A DNA stretch of 64,000 nt from an uncultured Clostridium sp. (GCA_947361355.1 CANAIR010000002.1:46976-110975); one strand, 5' to 3'; shown: positions 34,650-62,431, counted from the first letter of the stretch. A program made the numbers and translations. Notes: generated by a model from the sequence alone, not told the origin.

Positions 34650-35162
34650 TTATTTACATTCAAGCACATCTCCGATTAAAGTAATTTCTTTTGGAACCAG
34701 CATTGGGATGTAAGGTCCAGACTGATAAAATGAGATTGACGACCCATTAGGATTATATTCTCCATTTTTTAATTTGGAAGCTGTAACATGCCATCCCCTT
34801 TTTCCATTTTGCTTTGAAAATTTTGTCTTTGTAACAATATATTCACCGCAAAATATCGACGTGTTAAACATTTCTTCTTTTAAACTTATATTTAAGCTTT
34901 TTAAGAAGCTGTTAATTTTTTCTTCGGATACACATAACCCATGTGCTAAAAAATCTTTTTTGATGTCATCTCGAAGTTCAATCATATCGGCTGTTTTAGT
35001 AACTGCAGATAAAGAAAAAACTTCGCCAACAGTTATTATCTCGTATGTTTTTCTGTTTGAATTTCTCAAGTTTTTGTACAAATATTTTGCAGGTATTTCT
35101 GTATAAACTTGCATTCCCTTCTCTATTTTAAAAATGTTTCCTCTTTGCAATAATTTTTTCAT
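34650..35162 (-). CDS. Hypothetical cytoplasmic protein (170 aa)
   Basis: ORF with a GGAAAGAGGAT RBS; no domain recognised. Confidence 0.5.
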   Translation of the reverse strand: MKKLLQRGNIFKIEKGMQVYTEIPAKYLYKNLRNSNRKTYEIITVGEVFSLSAVTKTADMIELRDDIKKDFLAHGLCVSEEKINSFLKSLNISLKEEMFNTSIFCGEYIVTKTKFSKQNGKRGWHVTASKLKNGEYNPNGSSISFYQSGPYIPMLVPKEITLIGDVLECK

Positions 35163-39386: not shown

Positions 39387-42300
39387 ATGAAAAAAATTAA
39401 TAATTTTAAACTAAAAATATGTATGCTTATTTTTGTATTAGTCCTTATGATAGTACAAGTAGGTCCTTTTTTAGTTTATGCAGATGAAAGTAGATTAACA
39501 TTTTCTTGGGTAAGTTTTGGCCTACCATGTACAAATGAATATTACAATGGTAATGGCTTAGCTTTTGCCAAAGCACGTGTTGGTCAACATGTTGGTTATT
39601 GTTTAGATTATGGAGTACCTTTACCAACAGGAACTGGTGGTACAGTACAATATTTAAGAAAGTTATCTCCAGTAACTACTGCAGTAATAAGATATGGTTA
39701 TCCTAATGTATCAGCAGCTTCACTTGGTGTTAATAGTGATGAAGAAGCTGAATTTGCAACACAAATAGCAGTTTGGGGAGTTGTAAACTCATCTAATTCT
39801 AAAGATTCATATAAAACTAGTTGTGTTTTAGATATGGATAACTTAAAACCTACATATGGTTATGAAGCTTATATGACTAGAGTAAAAGCCGCTGCAAGAA
39901 GACTTATGGAAAGAGCATGGGCTGATCCTTATTACTCTAATCCTAAATGTTATATTAATCCAGCTAATGCTAAAATGAATGTTGGTTCTGAATATATGTT
40001 AGCAGGACCATATGAAATAAAAGCAACTGGATTTGAAGTTTCAAGTATATCAGTTAGCTTATCTAATGCTCCAAGTTCAGCACAAATTACTGATGCTAAT
40101 GGTAATGCAATATCAAAAGTTAACAATGGAACTAATGTATATGTAAAATTACCAAAAACATTATCAGGTTCTGAACTTACATTAAATGTTACTGCTAGTG
40201 GTAGCACAGCAGTAGGTAAAGCTTATGGTACTGGTAATATGTCAGATGCTAAACAAGATTATGGTATAGTGACAACTGAACCAGTTCAATTAAGTGATTC
40301 TTGTAAAGTTAAATGGTCTTCTTTAACAGGTAATGTTAGAATTTATAAAGTAGATCAATATGGAACTAAAATTCCAGGTGTAAAATTTGATCTTAAAGAT
40401 ATGAATAATAATGTTGTTGCATCAGGTACAACAGATACAAATGGTATATTAGAATTCAAGAATTTAAAAGTTGGTAGATATAAATTAGTTGAAGTTTCAG
40501 TACCAAGTAATTATATAATGGCAAAAGATCCATTTGAATTTGAAGTTACTACTGGAACAACAAAAGAAATTACTTTCCAAAATAAAAAAGTAGCTCCTGG
40601 TAAAATTCAAATTACAAAAATAGATCAAAATAATAACACAATACCAGGTTGTACATTCGAATTAAAAGATGCAAATGGTAAGGTTATTTACACAGGAACT
40701 ACAGATAAAGATGGTATTTTATCTTTTGATAACTTAGAGCAAGGTAAATATTATTTACAAGAAGTATCTGCTCCAGAAGGTTATGAAATGAAAAAAGATG
40801 CTGTTGAAATTGATGTTCCAAATAATAAAATAGTTACACTAAAATTCCCAAATAGAAGGGTAAATGGTGGACTAAAAATAATTAAAGTTGATGAAAATCA
40901 AAAACCTCTTGAAGGTGTAAAATTTGAAATATTAGATGCAAACAAAAAAGTTATAGATACAATAACAACTAATAAAGATGGTATTGCTGTAACTACTGCA
41001 AAATTAACAGTTGGAACATATTATTACAGAGAAATTTCAGCACCAGATAATATTATAATTGATACAAATGAATATCAATTTAAAATCAATGGTTATGATG
41101 AAGTAGTTATAAAAAATATAGTAAATAAAATCAAAAAAGGTAGACTTACAATACACAAAGTTACTGAAGGTGACAACAAACCACTAGCAAATGTAACATT
41201 TGAAATATTAGATGCAAATAAAAATGTTGTAGATACAATTGTTACAGATGCAAATGGTAATGCAGTTACTAAAGAATTACCAGAAGGTAAATATTATTAT
41301 AGAGAAACTAAAGTACCAGAAGGAATAAAATTAGATACTACAGAACATGAATTTACAATGGGTTACCAAAGTATTACAAAAGAAGTAGTAAATGAGTATT
41401 CTAAAGGTAAATTAAAAATAATAAAAGTAGATGAAAATGATAAACCTCTTGAAGGTGTAACATTCCAAATACTAGATGAAAACAAAAATGTAGTTGATAC
41501 AATTGTTACTAACAAAGAAGGAATTGCTGTAAGTACTGCTGATTTAACAGTTGGTAAGTATTATTACAAAGAAATTTCAGCACCAAATAATATTATAATA
41601 GATACTAATGAATATGAATTCAAAATCTCTAAAGATAATGAAGTTGTAATTAAAAATATAGTAAATAAAATCAAAAAAGGTAGACTTACAATTCATAAAG
41701 TTTCAGAAGGAGATAAAAAACCAATAGCAAATGTAACATTCCAAATATTAGATGCAAACAAAAAAGTAGTTGATACAATTGTTACAGATGCAAATGGTAA
41801 TGCAGTTACTAAAGAATTACCAGAAGGTAAATACTATTATAAAGAAGTAAAAGTTCCTGCAGAATATAAATTAGATGAAACAGAGTATGAATTTACAATG
41901 GATTATCAAGATGTAACAAAAGAAGTAGTAAACAAATATGCTAATGGTAAACTTAAAATATTAAAAGTAGATGAAAATGATATTCCTCTTAAAGGTATAG
42001 AATTTGAAATCTATGATGAAAACAAAAACCTAGTAGATACAATTGTTACTAATGAAAAAGGTGAAGCAATTTCTAAAGATTTACCTTTAGGTAAATACTA
42101 TTATAAAGAAACAAAAGCACCTGAAAATGTTATAATTGATAATAATATGTATGAATTTAAAATTTCTAAAGACAATGAAGTTGTTATAAAAAATGTTATT
42201 AATAAACTTATAAAAGGTAAATTAAAAATAGTTAAAACAACTGAAACAGGAACTCCAGTTCCAAATGTAACTTTCCAAATTTTAAATGAAGCAAAAGAAG

Positions 42301-43160
42301 TAATTGAAACAATTACTACAGATAAAGATGGTATTGCTGAAACTAAACTTTTACAATCTGGAAAATATTACTATCGTGAAATAGAAGCACCTGTAAATGT
42401 TATTGCTGATCTTACAGAATATGAATTTATAGTTGCAACAAACGATGAAGTTATCGAAAAAGAAGTAATTAATAAATTAGTAAAAGGAAGCTTAAAAATA
42501 GTTAAAACAGACGATTTAAAAGCACCTCTTGCAAATGTTAAATTTGAAATACTTGATAAAGATAAAAAAGTAATACAAACAATTGTAACTGATGAGAAAG
42601 GTATAGCTATATCAGACAAATTAACAATAGGAAAATATTACTATCGTGAAGTAGAAGCACCTGAAAATGTTGTAATGGACACAAAAGAACATGAATTTAA
42701 AGTTACTGAAAATAATCAAGTTATCGAAAAAGAAATCGAAAACAAGAGAATTGAAGGAAAACTTATAATTTATAAAAAAGACAAAGATACAAAGAAACCA
42801 ATTGAGGGTGTAACATTCCAAGTACTAAATGAAGCAAAAGAAGTAATTGCTACAATTACTACAGATAAAGATGGTATTGCTAGACAAGGTGAATTACTAA
42901 AAGGAAAATACTATTTTAAAGAAATAGAAGCTCCAGAAGAGTATATCATGAATACAAAAGAGTTCTCTTTTGAAATCAAAAAAGATATGCAAACTGAAGA
43001 AGTAACTGTATTCAACGAGCACAAAAAATTACCAGTAACAGGTGGATTTATTGGAACTAATACTTTAATAGTTATTATAGTATCAGTAGTTGTAATAGCA
43101 GGTTATGTGGTAGTAAAACTAGTACTTAATAGAAAGAATGAAGGTCATGATAATAACTAA
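39387..43160 (+). CDS. LPVTG-anchored surface adhesin: signal peptide + thioester domain (TED) + ~10 tandem CnaB-type (isopeptide-fold) repeats
   Basis: TED motifs: Cys in VGYCLDYG and Gln in FATQIAVWG (TQxAIW). About 10 repeats of ~88 aa (GKLKIIKVDENDKPLEGVTFQILD…GKYYYKEISAP…) with a K/E/N triad pattern. C-terminal LPVTGG + hydrophobic segment + KLVLNRKNEGH tail. Confidence 0.85.
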   Translation: MKKINNFKLKICMLIFVLVLMIVQVGPFLVYADESRLTFSWVSFGLPCTNEYYNGNGLAFAKARVGQHVGYCLDYGVPLPTGTGGTVQYLRKLSPVTTAVIRYGYPNVSAASLGVNSDEEAEFATQIAVWGVVNSSNSKDSYKTSCVLDMDNLKPTYGYEAYMTRVKAAARRLMERAWADPYYSNPKCYINPANAKMNVGSEYMLAGPYEIKATGFEVSSISVSLSNAPSSAQITDANGNAISKVNNGTNVYVKLPKTLSGSELTLNVTASGSTAVGKAYGTGNMSDAKQDYGIVTTEPVQLSDSCKVKWSSLTGNVRIYKVDQYGTKIPGVKFDLKDMNNNVVASGTTDTNGILEFKNLKVGRYKLVEVSVPSNYIMAKDPFEFEVTTGTTKEITFQNKKVAPGKIQITKIDQNNNTIPGCTFELKDANGKVIYTGTTDKDGILSFDNLEQGKYYLQEVSAPEGYEMKKDAVEIDVPNNKIVTLKFPNRRVNGGLKIIKVDENQKPLEGVKFEILDANKKVIDTITTNKDGIAVTTAKLTVGTYYYREISAPDNIIIDTNEYQFKINGYDEVVIKNIVNKIKKGRLTIHKVTEGDNKPLANVTFEILDANKNVVDTIVTDANGNAVTKELPEGKYYYRETKVPEGIKLDTTEHEFTMGYQSITKEVVNEYSKGKLKIIKVDENDKPLEGVTFQILDENKNVVDTIVTNKEGIAVSTADLTVGKYYYKEISAPNNIIIDTNEYEFKISKDNEVVIKNIVNKIKKGRLTIHKVSEGDKKPIANVTFQILDANKKVVDTIVTDANGNAVTKELPEGKYYYKEVKVPAEYKLDETEYEFTMDYQDVTKEVVNKYANGKLKILKVDENDIPLKGIEFEIYDENKNLVDTIVTNEKGEAISKDLPLGKYYYKETKAPENVIIDNNMYEFKISKDNEVVIKNVINKLIKGKLKIVKTTETGTPVPNVTFQILNEAKEVIETITTDKDGIAETKLLQSGKYYYREIEAPVNVIADLTEYEFIVATNDEVIEKEVINKLVKGSLKIVKTDDLKAPLANVKFEILDKDKKVIQTIVTDEKGIAISDKLTIGKYYYREVEAPENVVMDTKEHEFKVTENNQVIEKEIENKRIEGKLIIYKKDKDTKKPIEGVTFQVLNEAKEVIATITTDKDGIARQGELLKGKYYFKEIEAPEEYIMNTKEFSFEIKKDMQTEEVTVFNEHKKLPVTGGFIGTNTLIVIIVSVVVIAGYVVVKLVLNRKNEGHDNN

Positions 43161-55541: not shown

Positions 55542-55650
55542 AAATATGAAATTCGACAAAATTATAAAACATTACATAATTTTCAATAAAATACTTGCAA
55601 ATTTGAAAAAAATAGTGTACAATATTGATGTAAATACGGAGGAACTAAAC

Positions 55651-56739: not shown

Positions 56740-57375
56740 ATGTTTAATATAAAAAGATATGTAAAATTTATGTTTATTATAACAGTTATATATATTTCAA
56801 TATCTATTATGATACCATTTAAAGAAATAGTAGCTGCATCAAGTATTAGCATAAGTGGACCAACTGTTGTAATTGAAGGTCAAAGTGCTGTATTTAATGT
56901 AGTATATCCACAAAATGCAATATATATTAATTTATCAAGTGGAGATGTAGTTTTAAATGGTTTTCAAGCTACTATTAGTGTTACTGGTAGTGGTAATTCA
57001 AGAAAAATTATTTTAAATAATGTAAGAGGAACTGGAAATGGCAGAAGTATATCTATTGCTACTGGTACAGGTTATATAGGATCAAATAAAATTGAAGGAG
57101 TTACTTCGAATGCGTTTAGAATTAAAGGTGTAAATGATAGTACTGCTACACCAAAGCCAAATAAACCTCAAACTAATGTTAAACCAAATAATACTACTCC
57201 ACCTGTAAATAACAATCAACAACAAAATGGTCAAGAAAATAAAGATCAAAATAATAATGCAAAAGAAGAACCAGAAAAAAAAGAAGAGGAAAATAAGGAG
57301 CAAAATAAAGAAGAACAACCAGATAAAAATATAGATTACGATGCAAAAATTCCAATACCAAATACAGGAAAATAG
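56740..57375 (+). CDS. Secreted protein: signal peptide, beta-rich domain, low-complexity Pro/Asn/Gln/Glu linker, ending …IPIPNTGK-stop (sortase-motif-like but no membrane anchor)
   Basis: N-terminal hydrophobic signal; C-terminus PNTGK followed directly by TAG. Immediately upstream of a class-B-like sortase. Confidence 0.5.
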   Translation: MFNIKRYVKFMFIITVIYISISIMIPFKEIVAASSISISGPTVVIEGQSAVFNVVYPQNAIYINLSSGDVVLNGFQATISVTGSGNSRKIILNNVRGTGNGRSISIATGTGYIGSNKIEGVTSNAFRIKGVNDSTATPKPNKPQTNVKPNNTTPPVNNNQQQNGQENKDQNNNAKEEPEKKEEENKEQNKEEQPDKNIDYDAKIPIPNTGK

Positions 57376-57397: not shown

Positions 57398-58138
57398 ATG
57401 TTAAAAACAAATTTAAGTAATAAAAAGATTATAATAATTCTTATTTCTGTTTTAGTTGTAGCAATTATAGGCTTTATAATTTCTTTTTTCCTATCTAGAA
57501 ATAGTTTTTTTAATGAAGAATCAGAAGATAAAAGTAAAGTTATAACAGATTCGAAACAAGAAAATAGAGATTTGCAAAAAGAAATATCAGTAATTAATGA
57601 AACATATAAGGATGCTAAAGCATGGATTAAAGTACCTGGCACTAGTATAGATTCACCTGTGTATCAATCAGATAATAATGATAGATATTTAAGAAACGAT
57701 AAAGATAATGCACAAACAAGATGGGGAGAAAATTTCTTAGATTATAGATGTAATATAGATAATATAAATAAAGAAAAGCAACATTATATTGTATATGGTC
57801 ATAACACTGAAATAGATTCAAGATTTACACCACTTTTAAATTACAAGAATGAGGATTTCTTTAAAGAGCATAAATATGTAGAATTTGCTACATTAAATGG
57901 TAGCTATAAATTTGAAGTATTTTCTGCTTATTCAACAAGTACAGATTTTTACTATATAGATACAACTTTTAGAAACCTAGATGAATTTGGAAATTATATA
58001 AAATCACTAAAAGAAAAAAGTGAATATGAAACAAATGTAGAAATTACAAGAGAAGATACAATTTTAACTTTATCTACATGTGATTATGATATTGCAGATG
58101 GAAGATATGTTGTACATGCAAAACTAATTAATGAATAA
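57398..58138 (+). CDS. Sortase, class B-like (N-terminal TM; YIVYGHN His; TLSTC Cys; RYVVHAK Arg)
   Basis: Catalytic His-Cys-Arg in the canonical order; about 246 aa, the typical SrtB size. Confidence 0.8.
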   Translation: MLKTNLSNKKIIIILISVLVVAIIGFIISFFLSRNSFFNEESEDKSKVITDSKQENRDLQKEISVINETYKDAKAWIKVPGTSIDSPVYQSDNNDRYLRNDKDNAQTRWGENFLDYRCNIDNINKEKQHYIVYGHNTEIDSRFTPLLNYKNEDFFKEHKYVEFATLNGSYKFEVFSAYSTSTDFYYIDTTFRNLDEFGNYIKSLKEKSEYETNVEITREDTILTLSTCDYDIADGRYVVHAKLINE

Positions 58139-58218: not shown

Positions 58219-58247
58219 TTGACATTTTCACAAAAATATAGTATAAT
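58219..58247 (+). promoter_or_regulatory. Sigma-A promoter (TTGACA-17-TATAAT) with ~140-nt structured leader before the acidic secreted protein gene
   Basis: Consensus hexamers. The leader carries the hairpin GAAATTATT…AATAATTTC followed by a T-run at ~58296-58335. Confidence 0.5.
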
Positions 58248-58388
58248 ATAAGTGTAGGATTAGATTTTTTAGTCCCGTTTGTAACTATAAACGTGAGAAA
58301 TTATTGTTTTTTAATAATTTCCTTTTATTTTAAAAACTAAATATCGATTACAATTGAATATAGATTAAAATTTAAGGAGATTAAAAAA

Positions 58389-59273
58389 ATGGGTATTACA
58401 AAAAATATCGGTATAGCTGCAGTAAGCGCAGCAATGATTGGAATTTCAGCAGTGATGCTTTGGAGTCCATCAGATGATGTAAAAAAAGCAGAGCCAACAC
58501 CGATGAAGCCTAAGGTAACTTCTGAGAAAACTCTTGGTCGGCTTCCTAAAAAGTCTGATAAAGACAAAGAAAAAAAGGAAGAGAAGAAAGAGGAAGAAGT
58601 TTCCTACGAAGTAGTATATAATGGTTATGATAACTATGACTATTATGGCTATGGTTATGGCGGAGTAGGCGGAGATGCTTCGTATACAACAGCTGAACCT
58701 AATGCACATGTTGAAGAAAATACAGTTGCTAACCAGGCAGTTGTTGAGCAGCAAATTCAAGAAGATGCTGAGGAGCAGGCTGCTGAGGAAGCAAAGAAGG
58801 AAGTTGCTGAAAAGGAACTTCAGGTTGTTTATCTTGATGAAAGTAAAGAAACTACTACAGTTCAGGAACCAGTAGTAGTTGTAACAGATGATGGAAAAGT
58901 AACAACATCTACAGATGTCGGTGAAAGTGGTTCATCATCTACAGGCGACAACCGTGAGGTTATTGATTTAGGAGTAATTTCATTTGGAGATGAATCTACT
59001 GTATCAACTTCAACTCAGGCTGCAGCATCTGTTGCTACGCCACCACAGGAAGTTGTAGATACACAACCTCAGCCTGTAGTAACTCAACAGCCAGTTGTAG
59101 CAGAGCCTGTAGTAGAAGAGTTACCAGTAATTGAAACAGTTGTAACATCAGAGCCAGTACCAGACTATACAGGTTCAACAGTTGTTGCAGAGGGCTTTGA
59201 CGGAGCTGTTATCGATGGTGTGGAACTTCTTGAGGGTGAAGGGCTTTTAGAAGTAGTAATCATGAACGAGTAA
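58389..59273 (+). CDS. Secreted acidic low-complexity protein; C-terminal module paralogous to the C-terminus of the 664-aa protein at 60242; locally elevated GC
   Basis: Signal peptide (GIAAVSAAMIGISAVML). Shared motifs with the 60242 ORF (AEPNAHVEENTVANQAVVEQQIQEDAEEQAAEEAKKEV…; DNREVIDLGVISFGDEST). Codon usage is visibly GC-richer than its neighbours. Confidence 0.6.
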   Translation: MGITKNIGIAAVSAAMIGISAVMLWSPSDDVKKAEPTPMKPKVTSEKTLGRLPKKSDKDKEKKEEKKEEEVSYEVVYNGYDNYDYYGYGYGGVGGDASYTTAEPNAHVEENTVANQAVVEQQIQEDAEEQAAEEAKKEVAEKELQVVYLDESKETTTVQEPVVVVTDDGKVTTSTDVGESGSSSTGDNREVIDLGVISFGDESTVSTSTQAAASVATPPQEVVDTQPQPVVTQQPVVAEPVVEELPVIETVVTSEPVPDYTGSTVVAEGFDGAVIDGVELLEGEGLLEVVIMNE

Positions 59274-59377
59274 AATTTATTAGAAAGAATGGTCAAATTT
59301 TTGATCATTCTTTTTTTGGTGCAAATTATGACAAACTTTTGCATTTATATATGGTATAATAGTTTTGAGGTGGGAAT

Positions 59378-59683
59378 ATGAAATATAAATATGAAGATGG
59401 AAATTTAAATATTAATTTAAATGAAGAATTAGATATGAAAAATTGTAAGTTATTAAGAACGGTAATAGATGGTTATATTATGAAATATCAACCAAAAGAA
59501 TGTGTACTGGATTTAAGTAATGTTGAATTTATGGATAGTAGTGGTATTGGACTTTTAATAGGAAGATATAATCTACTTAAAATGTTAGACTCTAAAATGA
59601 CAATTATAAATCCAACAAGTAGTATAAAAAGAGTATTAGAATTATCTAATATAGGAAAAAGTATAACTATGAGGTGTGAATAA
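59378..59683 (+). CDS. spoIIAA: Anti-sigma-F factor antagonist SpoIIAA (STAS domain)
   Basis: …LDLSNVEFMDSSGIGLLIGRY… matches SpoIIAA, including the phosphorylatable Ser in DSSG. Confidence 0.85.
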   Translation: MKYKYEDGNLNINLNEELDMKNCKLLRTVIDGYIMKYQPKECVLDLSNVEFMDSSGIGLLIGRYNLLKMLDSKMTIINPTSSIKRVLELSNIGKSITMRCE

Positions 59684-60132
59684 TGAATAATTTTATAAAA
59701 ATAGAAATAAAGGCATTACTTGAAAATGTAGCCTGTGCAAGGGTTGCTATAACATCTTTTGTTTCTAATTTAGAAATTACAATAGATGAATTAATGGATA
59801 TAAAAACGGCATTATCAGAGGCTGTTACAAATAGTATAGAACATGGATATGAAAACATATTAGATGAAAACTCTACCGTTGAAATTAAAGCATATATTTA
59901 TGAGCAAGATGATGATAGCTTTGTAAAATTGGAAATAAAAGATAGAGGAATAGGAATAGATGATATAGAACTTGCGCTTACTCCTACATATACAACAAAA
60001 CCAGAACTTGAACATGCTGGCATGGGATTTACTATAATGGAAAGTTTCATGGATGAGATTTTAATAGACTCAGATAAGGAAAATGGTACAGTTGTTACTT
60101 TGATAAAAAAGATTAAGAAAAAAAAGTCATGA
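59683..60132 (+). CDS. spoIIAB: Anti-sigma-F factor SpoIIAB (GHKL serine kinase)
   Basis: …ELMDIKTALSEAVTNSIEHGY…TKPELEHAGMGFTIMESFMDE… is near-identical in motifs to B. subtilis SpoIIAB. Confidence 0.9.
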   Translation: MNNFIKIEIKALLENVACARVAITSFVSNLEITIDELMDIKTALSEAVTNSIEHGYENILDENSTVEIKAYIYEQDDDSFVKLEIKDRGIGIDDIELALTPTYTTKPELEHAGMGFTIMESFMDEILIDSDKENGTVVTLIKKIKKKKS

Positions 60133-60241
60133 TTTGTTAAAAAAATCGAAAATTTCTAAATATTTTTTACATAAGTATTGTAAATTCTTTTATTTAAGTA
60201 TATAATCATAGTATATTATATGAGGTTGATGGAGGAAGTAT

Positions 60242-62236
60242 ATGGAAAGAAAAGAGTTTAACAGTGTAGAAGAAGCAATAGAATCCCTAAATAGTGTTAG
60301 AAACATTGATTATTCAAGTGTAGATAATGTAGGTGAGATTACAGAAAGAGAATTTTATAACAACTTAATGAATAATTTTATGGGAACAAGAAATATAAGA
60401 TTTACTGCTGAACAAAGAAGAAATTATCAAGAGGCTTTAAGAAAAAAAGGTCTATTATCTTATGCTGATTGGAAAAGAAGACAACCTAATAGAGGGCAAA
60501 AGGTTACATGGAAAGACTCTGTTGAAAAGGGCTCACTTGATGTTCCTGTTAATTTGTTTAGCAAATTAGTTGAAACAGATGATGAAAGAAAATTTGAATA
60601 TATAAAAGAAGTTGCTACTGATGAAAGAAAATCAGATGTTGGTATAAAATGGCTTGATAAAAGTGCAGGTATTTTAAAAGATCTTATTTCTAAAAATAGA
60701 GACTCTAAAGCTACTAAATCAATAAATGCTGATACCAAAGTAATATTTGATGGTCAAAGTAAAGGAGAAAGAATTCTTTCTGATACTCAAAAAGATATTT
60801 CAAATTTTGTAGCAAGCGTATTAAATGAAAAAGAAAAACAAAAACAAAGAGATAATAGGACGGTTGATCAGATAATGGCTCAATCAGAAAAGGATTTATC
60901 AAATTTTGTTAATGATATCTTAGAGGAAAGGAAAGCTCAAGGACAGCAACAACATGCTAAAAAACGTGGTATTACAAAAAAACAAGAATTTGATGATTTC
61001 TTTACTAAAAGTCATAGAAATTTTAGAAATCATGATGAAGTAATTCAAGCTTTAAATTCTATTAAAAAAATAGATTTTGATAGAGGACCAAGTAAAGAAG
61101 AACAACAAAGATTTTATTACGATGTTATGCAAACTTTAGAAGATGCTAATGATTTGGAAATTCCAGACGGTGGAGAAGGTAGTGACATAGCTTTTCAATA
61201 TAGGCAAGCTTTAGGAAATATTGGTTGTAAAACGATGAAAGAGTTGAAAGTAGCTGGTGCTATGAATAGAAGTGTAAAGCGTCCTGCTAAAGTAATTGAT
61301 TCAATACTTAATTCAAGAAGACATAATGATAACAAAGGATTTAGAACTGCAGTAGATAAATTAAGAGATGATTATAAATTAAGAGATTGGATAGATGATA
61401 CTAAAATAACATTATTAGACAGAGATGAAAGAAAAAGGGAAAAACTTGAAAGAAGAGAAAAGTTTGTAAGAAGAGAAGAACCTGAAGAAAGAGAAAAAGA
61501 AAAATATCCAGTTCCAGTTACTAAAAAAAGAGGATTTTCTTCTATTAAAAAAGCTTTTACAAGAGCTGGAATAGCAACATTAGCATTTTTAGGAGTAACA
61601 GTAGGTGCTGCAGGTTCGCTTGGTAGCAAAACTCAAGCAGAAGATGTAGATGAAAAAGTACCTAAACCACTTAAAATAGAAGATCAAAAAGATAATAAGT
61701 CTAAAGATAAAGTAAAAGAAAATAAAAAATTAGAAAATAACCTTAAAGAAGCAGGTATAAATGCACAAAGTTTTGAAGATGAATTAAGAGATAGTACAAA
61801 TTATGTTGGAGGTAATTACTATAATTATCAAGCAGACCAAAATTATACTGTTGCACCAAATTCACATACTGAACAAAATACACAAGCTAATGAAAAAGAA
61901 GCTCAAATAAGAGCAGAAGAAGATCAAGCTGAGCAAGAAGCTATTGAAGCAAAAGAAGAAATTGCAGATGTTGAGTTAGAAGTAGTTATGGATGGTAATA
62001 ATGAAATAGGTGAAATAGTAGATAGTGGTACAAAAGCTCCAGAAACAGTAGTAGTTGGTAATGATGGGTCAACCGATATTCAAAGCCCAGTAACTCTTCC
62101 TGGTGATGGAAGTGATTCTATCATTGAGGATGATAGAGAAGTTGAGGATATGGGGGAAATTTCATTTGGAGATGAAGATTTTTCAGAAGATCTTGAAGAG
62201 GAAGATAAAACAGTTGATGATGATTACACAAGATAA
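60242..62236 (+). CDS. Single-pass membrane protein: ~430-aa cytoplasmic domain with internal duplication, one TM helix, extracellular acidic module paralogous to the 58389 gene; occupies the position normally held by sigF
   Basis: TM at …AGIATLAFLGVTVGAAGSLG…. Internal repeat (KDISNFVASVLNEKEKQKQ / KDLSNFVNDILEERKAQGQ). C-terminal …VAPNSHTEQNTQANEKEAQIRAEEDQAEQEAIEAKEE…DDREVEDMGEISFGDEDF. Confidence 0.6.
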   Translation: MERKEFNSVEEAIESLNSVRNIDYSSVDNVGEITEREFYNNLMNNFMGTRNIRFTAEQRRNYQEALRKKGLLSYADWKRRQPNRGQKVTWKDSVEKGSLDVPVNLFSKLVETDDERKFEYIKEVATDERKSDVGIKWLDKSAGILKDLISKNRDSKATKSINADTKVIFDGQSKGERILSDTQKDISNFVASVLNEKEKQKQRDNRTVDQIMAQSEKDLSNFVNDILEERKAQGQQQHAKKRGITKKQEFDDFFTKSHRNFRNHDEVIQALNSIKKIDFDRGPSKEEQQRFYYDVMQTLEDANDLEIPDGGEGSDIAFQYRQALGNIGCKTMKELKVAGAMNRSVKRPAKVIDSILNSRRHNDNKGFRTAVDKLRDDYKLRDWIDDTKITLLDRDERKREKLERREKFVRREEPEEREKEKYPVPVTKKRGFSSIKKAFTRAGIATLAFLGVTVGAAGSLGSKTQAEDVDEKVPKPLKIEDQKDNKSKDKVKENKKLENNLKEAGINAQSFEDELRDSTNYVGGNYYNYQADQNYTVAPNSHTEQNTQANEKEAQIRAEEDQAEQEAIEAKEEIADVELEVVMDGNNEIGEIVDSGTKAPETVVVGNDGSTDIQSPVTLPGDGSDSIIEDDREVEDMGEISFGDEDFSEDLEEEDKTVDDDYTR

Positions 62237-62431
62237 ATTTTGACTTTAAAATATTGACAATCATAAAAATTGAGATGAATTTTGTTTCGTCTCAATTTTT
62301 TTTAAACCATATATATTATAATATTTAATAATATAATAGTATAAAATGCAGATTTATACATAAATAATTGAAAAAAAGCTTAGAATAGTATATAATATAA
62401 TAACATATAATATGTTGAAAGGAATGATAAC

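Follow-up and report, generated by a model that had tools for sequence, protein, structure and literature searches.

The canonical spoIIA region of Bacillus subtilis is ordered dacF-spoIIAA-spoIIAB-sigF, and variable surface-protein loci are found in Firmicutes, for example the S-layer/cwp cassettes of Clostridioides difficile. In bacteria, the GC content of third codon positions (GC3) has been associated with recombination independently of codon selection, through GC-biased gene conversion (PMC4450053). The locus described here lies in a 64,000-nucleotide stretch of DNA from an uncultured Clostridium sp. (GCA_947361355.1 CANAIR010000002.1:46976-110975; the whole stretch is called the window), where a spoIIAA-like and a spoIIAB-like gene are bracketed by two genes, A and B. 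The window has a GC content of 26.3% and a gene set of the type of sporulating Clostridia, including yqfD-like, spoIID-like and spoIIM genes, a Tad pilus cluster, polC and ribosomal-protein genes. An earlier note on this DNA had proposed that gene A, with its GC-richer codons, was either acquired recently by horizontal transfer or subject to expression-driven codon bias. Our results show that A is a paralogue of the C-terminal third of B and that both have been inherited vertically; each consists of a single transmembrane (TM) helix and an acidic, mostly disordered segment. They also show that the deviation of A is mostly an amino-acid composition signal, the remainder being a conserved local equilibrium. 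The two genes and their shared modules are as follows.

58389..59273, + strand: gene A, 294 amino acids, open reading frame (ORF) confirmed, GC 0.412.
60242..62236, + strand: gene B, 664 amino acids, ORF confirmed, with host-typical codon usage.
58674..59003, + strand: shared module in A (residues 96-205), with Y-T-T-A-E-P-N-A-H...A-N, an amphipathic helix, VVVTDDGK and DNREVIDLGVISFGDE.
61832..62185, + strand: shared module in B (residues 531-648), located by BLASTP, with one helix at 542-580.

Composition-adjusted BLASTP aligned residues 3-202 of A to residues 426-645 of B with 33% identity (E=2e-18). The Smith-Waterman score of the two proteins was 234, compared with 101-103 +/- 13 when A was shuffled in blocks of 10 or 20 residues (z=10), while the core module alone reached z=11.7 and reversed A scored 60. 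Because the observed score exceeds those of the block shuffles and of reversed A, the similarity represents homology and more than a low-complexity bias in Glu and Gln, the doubt that the earlier note had attached to its observation of a collinear module common to A and the C-terminus of B. That observation is confirmed, with shuffle z values of about 10-12. Given that the alignment begins at the membrane helix of each protein, A corresponds to B minus its 430-residue cytoplasmic part, plus a tail rich in Val, Glu, Pro and Thr. The short conserved motifs are Y-x-x-(A)P-N/D-x-H...A-N, the long amphipathic helix, a DDG(S) hairpin and D-N/D-R-E-V-I-D-x-G-x-I-x-F.

Protein A runs from an N-terminal membrane anchor or signal (residues 3-25) through an acidic/basic linker and the module (residues ~96-205) into the Val/Glu/Pro/Thr-rich tail. 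AlphaFold2 predicted a TM helix at 3-25, a helix at 106-141 with a predicted local distance difference test score (pLDDT) of 73-86, and a small hairpin at 162-174 at VVVVTDDGKVTT, the rest being below 50 and disordered. Protein B consists of a duplicated helical domain (residues ~1-150 and ~250-400), a basic stretch, a TM segment (residues ~442-461) and the acidic module; its helical N-terminal part was predicted with pLDDT 70-90, a single helix at 542-580 is equivalent to that of A, and the remainder appears as disorder (pLDDT <50). The stretch KKRGFSSIKKAFTR precedes the hydrophobic segment of B (residues 442-461) and an acidic tail follows it. With topology assigned by the positive-inside rule only, both modules would face outward, and the extracellular location claimed in the earlier note is therefore probable.

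A and B belong to undescribed families confined to a narrow clade of uncultured, very AT-rich gut Clostridia. Homologues formed six clusters for B and two for A among 5.8 billion, and a profile search of 1.84 billion cluster representatives returned 28 matches, five of them A-like, with no A-like protein outside the clade. Among the GTDB species genomes, a scan with B revealed no relative. Pfam, NCBIfam and PHROG assigned no family to A, which had no PDB match either. B had no Pfam or NCBIfam hit at E<0.01, no recognisable anti-sigma domain and no sigma-70 Pfam regions, and PDB sequence and Foldseek searches with it also gave no significant match. Two weak hits, an L7Ae match on the helix of A (0.0023) and a PHROG terminase match on residues 2-81 of B (0.0011), were treated as chance.

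Base composition was judged against the other 57 genes of the window, the expected number of G/C-ending codons being calculated from the amino acids of A and the codon usage of the window. The GC content of A at the three codon positions is 0.637 (GC1), 0.376 (GC2) and 0.224 (GC3), compared with averages of 0.396, 0.292 and 0.122 for the other genes. Position 1 accounts for 57% of this excess, position 2 for 20% and position 3 for 24%. Because the larger part thus falls at the first position, the visibly GC-richer sequence is mostly due to the abundance of Val, Glu, Ala, Gly, Asp and Thr in the protein. At synonymous level, 66 G/C-ending codons were observed where 32.5 were expected (z=6.9), while B had a z of −1.1 and the other + strand genes all lay within −3.3 to +2.6. 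The raised codons are GAG (38%), CAG (69%), AAG (42%), AAC (50%), ATC (27%), GGC (22%) and CTT (73%), with the excess found mainly in G-ending GAG, AAG and CAG (45 G3 versus 21 C3). Of the codons named in the earlier note, GGC, CAG and GAG are raised, and CCG and CGG each occur once in A; its description of the B copy as host-typical agrees with the z of B. The synonymous excess of A is thus real, but it is modest, A ranking second of 58 genes in GC3. The highest GC3 of the window (0.259, corrected z=5.7) belongs to a 170-amino-acid gene between polC and an ABC transporter gene (34650..35162, − strand). Residues 430-664 of B have a similar amino-acid bias (GC1 0.58) yet a GC3 of only 0.08, which excludes amino-acid context as the source of the GC3 of A; the modules of the two genes, with the same bias, lie ~3 kb apart (module to module) and have GC3 values of 0.22 and 0.08.

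The order A - spoIIAA - spoIIAB - B - cysS is kept in the related loci L002, L004, L006 and L041, and the A side of it was seen in L003, L042 and L043. In this shared order femAB follows cysS in every contig long enough to include it, and L041 matches the synteny of the window from rpsD through femAB. A stands at the same position in L003, L004, L041, L042 and L043; in L002 and L006, fragments of it occupy that position. The A orthologues are all GC-rich (GC 0.37-0.42, GC1 0.53-0.69), and the complete ones keep the synonymous GC3 excess (z=8.5 in L003, 5.5 in L004 and 4.6 in L041). When A of the window is compared with its orthologues, third-position identity is 0.45 for L003 and 0.38 for L041, with GC3 remaining at 0.21-0.24 throughout. 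Because third positions have largely turned over while GC3 has stayed in this range, the GC3 of A looks like an equilibrium, since a foreign relic would have decayed. Regarding signs of a horizontally acquired island, A is bounded by no tRNA, repeat or mobility gene, and the position of the xerD-type gene at 55546 is conserved among relatives, whether or not they carry A. The atypical GC and GC3 of A do not discriminate in this respect, because its orthologues all deviate alike.

More distant relatives were reached by a scan with SpoIIAB, which identified 17 loci in metagenome-assembled genomes (MAGs) of uncultured Clostridia from rabbit, mouse, buffalo and other gut samples (55-73% identity). 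Profiles of A and B found no homologue in these 17 loci. Where the slot upstream of spoIIAA, with srtB or a large surface protein on its other side, is filled, it holds a membrane-anchored repeat-rich protein of other families. The occupants show GC3 excesses, with z values, inflated because repeat units are not independent, of 16.7 (L018), 13.8 (L019), 15.0 (L021), 8.8 (L015), 4.6 (L016), 3.1 (L022) and 2.2 (L013). The direction is consistent across loci, while adjoining large surface-protein genes deviate in the opposite direction (L018 1301-3916, z=−3.6), and several occupants have 11/12 consensus promoters. The synonymous excess of A is thus stably associated with its place in the gene order, immediately before spoIIAA.

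The distant occupants themselves (L018 4062-5558, L019 2225-4117, L015 3982-5565, L021 2957-4105 and L022 2398-3372) are multi-TM or TM-anchored proteins. Their short tandem repeats include GDVNVNEGDVNVDK, Cys-rich CTxxGYTxYxCxCGxSYK units and EELTADKAVV, and their GC3 reaches up to 0.42 where ~0.17-0.22 would be expected.

Between the window and L003, the coding sequence of A is 49-67% identical at nucleotide level, except for an island of 80% at 58545-58644, and its flanks, including the non-coding promoter and leader (81-82%), are 81-92% identical. Where the two A orthologues compared have the same residue, 52% of codons are identical, compared with 83% in spoIIAA, which suggests faster synonymous turnover in A, although part of this gap is expected because the codon usage of A is more even. 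In a neighbour-joining tree built on the region after the membrane helix (182 columns, 40 bootstrap replicates), A and B did not separate. The L041 pair grouped with 82% support, L006-type A with B of L005/L006 with 62%, and A of the window and L003 with B of the window and L001 with 60%. Shared features run along the same lines: in both L041 copies the DDGS unit is duplicated and has a Pro-rich spacer, and L006-type A and B share PETNAEVYG.AN where the other copies have P-N/D-S/T-H. Because the modules group by lineage (the L004 pair excepted), as emerged from the phylogeny of both copies that the earlier note had called for, concerted evolution of the A and B modules is indicated. No trace of recent gene conversion between A and B was found, the longest identical run being 19 nucleotides in the window and 24 nucleotides in L041. 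Given this lack of fresh tracts, homogenisation is either old relative to synonymous turnover or has taken the form of co-evolution at protein level.

Taken together, we favour, with somewhat better than even confidence, an explanation in which A and B are a vertically inherited paralogous pair, the GC3 excess of A is upheld by a local GC-ward force, and the two modules have a partner in common. In this explanation the modules would bind that common partner or each other, and B would couple binding by its ectodomain to its cytoplasmic domain. A would then be an anchor-only and probably abundant version that modulates B or competes with it. The leading candidate for the local force keeping up the GC3 of A would be GC-biased gene conversion, which may be tied to recombination and turnover at a fast-evolving slot exchanging sequence with its paralogue.

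Several points weigh against this explanation. The module tree was built on 182 low-complexity columns, has moderate support and does not group the L004 pair. The A fragment of L006 does not have a raised GC3 (z=0.9 over 91 codons), third-position identities such as the 0.38-0.45 of A are not strictly comparable between genes differing in codon bias, and the z values of the distant slot occupants are subject to the inflation mentioned above. Recombination at A is postulated rather than directly observed. A is nearly invariant within its 90%-identity cluster, with four variable residues besides an N-terminal start difference, and within-species hypervariability was not seen inside that cluster. 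Finally, the model of a shared ligand with A as modulator is hypothetical, and the fold and family searches yielded no match.

The strongest alternative involves the transcript of A, the signals of which are listed here together with the terminator.

58219..58247, + strand: promoter of A, sigma-A-type consensus (TTGACA, 17 nucleotides, TATAAT; 12/12), found by sequence scan.
58248..58388, + strand: structured leader of A, ~140 nucleotides (RNA fold −30.1 kcal/mol, z=−4.1).
59282..59317, + strand: intrinsic terminator of A, an AT-rich 15-pair hairpin followed by a T run (−15.5 kcal/mol, z=−5.9).

With this consensus promoter, structured leader, strong Shine-Dalgarno and terminator, A is, on sequence grounds, its own transcription unit. 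The promoter is kept upstream of the orthologues in L003 and L004 (12/12) and L041 (11/12). The leader contains a 5’ stem-loop (GGATTAGA...TAGTCC), and the AAGGAG Shine-Dalgarno is paired in the last predicted hairpin. Boxes of the form CT(A/G)AATAT occur twice in the window (58337-58344 and 58354-58361) and recur with the 5’ stem-loop in L003 (330-578, seven boxes) and L004 (440-535, two in the leader). They may represent a candidate binding array for a regulator, and the leader had no family match in Rfam. The terminator was missed by a consensus scan because that scan requires at least three G-C pairs. Overlapping or antisense ORFs in A (58337-58567, 58470-58760 and 58675-58875) look like by-products of a locally lower stop-codon density and were set aside.

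We regard it as possible, though distinctly less probable than the explanation with a local GC-ward force, that selection acts on the mRNA of a putatively strongly transcribed A rather than on the speed of translation. G/C-ending codons would then stabilise the mRNA in a very AT-rich cell, prevent long runs of A where Lys and Glu are frequent, or make the ribosome proceed more slowly along a secreted disordered chain. The perfect or near-perfect consensus promoter in four lineages, the stem-loop at the transcript start combined with the Shine-Dalgarno and the gene’s own terminator, the predominance of G-ending GAG, AAG and CAG in the excess, and the 11/12 promoters of the positional analogues are all consistent with it. 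However, B has similar Lys/Glu-rich stretches and uses AAA at 91% and GAA at 86%, and other secreted or low-complexity genes of the window have low GC3 (56740..57375, z=−2.1; 39387..43160, z=−3.3).

Ancient transfer of A from a GC-richer donor to the ancestor of the clade, followed by incomplete amelioration and with the module of B derived from A, is improbable. It would explain why A is a compositional outlier, and it fits a slot whose content turns over, with non-homologous genes in different lineages. By contrast, the third positions of A are near random between orthologues (0.38-0.45 identity) and GC3 is still 0.21-0.24, and no A-like protein was found outside the clade among the 1.84 billion representatives. 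In addition, the grouping of A with B by lineage dates their last exchange after the lineage splits, and yet the module of B has a GC3 of 0.08.

Classical translational selection in a highly expressed A, the form of expression-driven bias suggested in the earlier note, is very unlikely. A has the consensus promoter, and its preferences for AAC, ATC, GAC and CTT resemble those reportedly found in other low-GC Firmicutes. However, the codon usage of rpsM, rpsK, rpsD, rpoA and rplQ shifts the opposite way, with GC3 of 0.065-0.11 (z=−1.3 to −2.1) and avoidance of GAG, AAG and CAG. These three codons are used at 0.10, 0.09 and 0.00 in the ribosomal-protein and rpoA genes of the window, compared with 0.38, 0.42 and 0.69 in A, and the same contrast between ribosomal-protein genes and A was observed in L041. 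As A has a perfect consensus promoter, an expression-linked cause of another kind may underlie the codon shift. Least probable of all, and refuted by the synteny, is the recent transfer of A into this genome that the earlier note had put forward. The local GC, at 0.40-0.43 compared with 0.22-0.30 on either side, points that way, but at least five related lineages keep both the synteny and the composition. The similarity of promoter and leader to those of L003 (81-82%) also speaks against it, no A-like protein was found outside the clade among the 1.84 billion representatives, and A is not bounded by a tRNA, repeat or mobility gene, the XerD-type gene being kept in relatives without A. A GC-rich gene in an AT-rich genome thus need not be foreign.

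The surroundings of the pair were characterized as well. On the + strand, a spoIIM-like gene (54921), the xerD-type recombinase gene (55546), a gene for a secreted low-complexity protein (56740) and a class B sortase gene (57398) are followed by gene A (58389), a STAS gene (59378), a HATPase_c_2 gene (59683), gene B (60242) and cysS (62432). Rfam and tRNA scans of the entire window gave no match. The remaining features of the locus are:

59378..59683, + strand: spoIIAA-like anti-sigma-factor antagonist gene, STAS (PF01740 at 2.3e-14; superfamily model TIGR00377 at 68.9, above 53.45).
59683..60132, + strand: spoIIAB-like gene for an anti-sigma F factor/serine kinase (equivalog TIGR01925 at 165.7, above 135).
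62265..62303, + strand: intrinsic terminator after B (−16.5 kcal/mol, z=−6.7), followed by T8.

The STAS protein passed only the superfamily model TIGR00377, scoring 83.9 bits against the SpoIIAA equivalog TIGR02886, under its cut-off of 114.75. In the spacer between spoIIAB and B, a hairpin was not significant (z=−0.5) and a 10/12 promoter-like site lies at 60178-60206. Since the spacer has no significant structure, B could be read through from spoIIAA-spoIIAB, besides any contribution of the weaker promoter-like site. The cytoplasmic part of B (60242-61441, residues 1-400) is an internal tandem duplication of a helical domain of ~130 residues with the conserved features EREFY, ..AL...GC and W..S. 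This domain had no Pfam, PDB or PHROG match and recurs in one to three copies per protein among small soluble proteins from other Firmicutes (P0013, P0016-P0032); the genomic contexts of two such proteins (P0021 and P0028) were uninformative. In L041 and L042 an additional ORF of 106 amino acids (L041 11485-11805), which the window does not have, lies between B and cysS.

The protein encoded at 56740-57375 (+ strand), adjoining srtB (57398-58138), ends in ...IPNTGK directly before the stop codon, an NPxTG-type sorting motif without a hydrophobic tail or charged anchor. Its relatives at the same position end in ...NPNTGR or ...NPNTGK directly before the stop codon (L007 2587-3444 and L010 3868-4749). 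Gene A, which srtB also adjoins, has no C-terminal NPxTG-type motif with a hydrophobic tail that would mark a substrate of sortase B; it ends in ...LLEVVIMNE, and its orthologues in ...VVVEW, ...IVIDAA and ...TMVA.

No sigF was found directly downstream of spoIIAB in the window, in L001-L023 or in L041, the locus itself being what was covered; spoIIAB is followed across the clade by B, an hslO-like gene, an rluD-like gene or a 90-amino-acid ORF. A spoIIA locus lacking sigF clade-wide, with a novel membrane protein there in one subclade, would be of interest for the evolution of sporulation control. A bolder proposal, which we consider improbable, would treat the slot upstream of spoIIAA in this clade as a conserved expression slot with a strong vegetative-type promoter, in which genes for membrane-anchored surface proteins are replaced and reshaped unusually fast and which has a higher GC3 equilibrium than the remaining genome, be it as a localised hot spot of recombination or biased conversion or as a distinct codon regime. 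In the subclade of the window, B would then be a membrane-spanning partner of SpoIIAA/SpoIIAB at the site of sigF, and the sensor ectodomain that it has in common with A would allow a signal from outside the cell to act on the first compartment-specific step of sporulation. Should the GC3 shift of this slot stand out across the entire genome, it would provide a clean natural contrast between biased gene conversion and selection at synonymous sites in bacteria.

Compared with described systems, the locus resembles the spoIIA region of B. subtilis in having a spoIIAA-spoIIAB pair after a gene whose product is exported or membrane-bound, with SpoIIAB over its equivalog cut-off. It differs in that A is not a D-Ala-D-Ala carboxypeptidase and has its own vegetative-type consensus promoter and terminator, and in that B stands in place of sigF, which is also absent from that place in all 17 MAG loci. 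B recalls the single-pass anti-sigma proteins of RsgI/zf-HC2 type in its putative N-in orientation with one TM helix and an extracytoplasmic C-terminus, and in adjoining sigma-regulatory genes. Unlike them, it has no adjacent sigma gene and a cytoplasmic part of ~430 residues in which a helical domain from an undescribed family is duplicated. Similar to the S-layer/cwp cassettes, A combines a strong promoter and a long structured leader with a coding sequence that diverges fast between conserved flanks; however, it has a TM-helix anchor in place of any cell-wall-binding, SLH or sorting-signal domain, and low within-species diversity. Finally, the pattern in A is like the biased conversion of PMC4450053 in that GC3 is raised against the direction of codon selection at a fast-evolving locus that evolves in concert with a paralogue, while the effect at A is bound to one syntenic slot across non-homologous genes, a situation not described in that paper.

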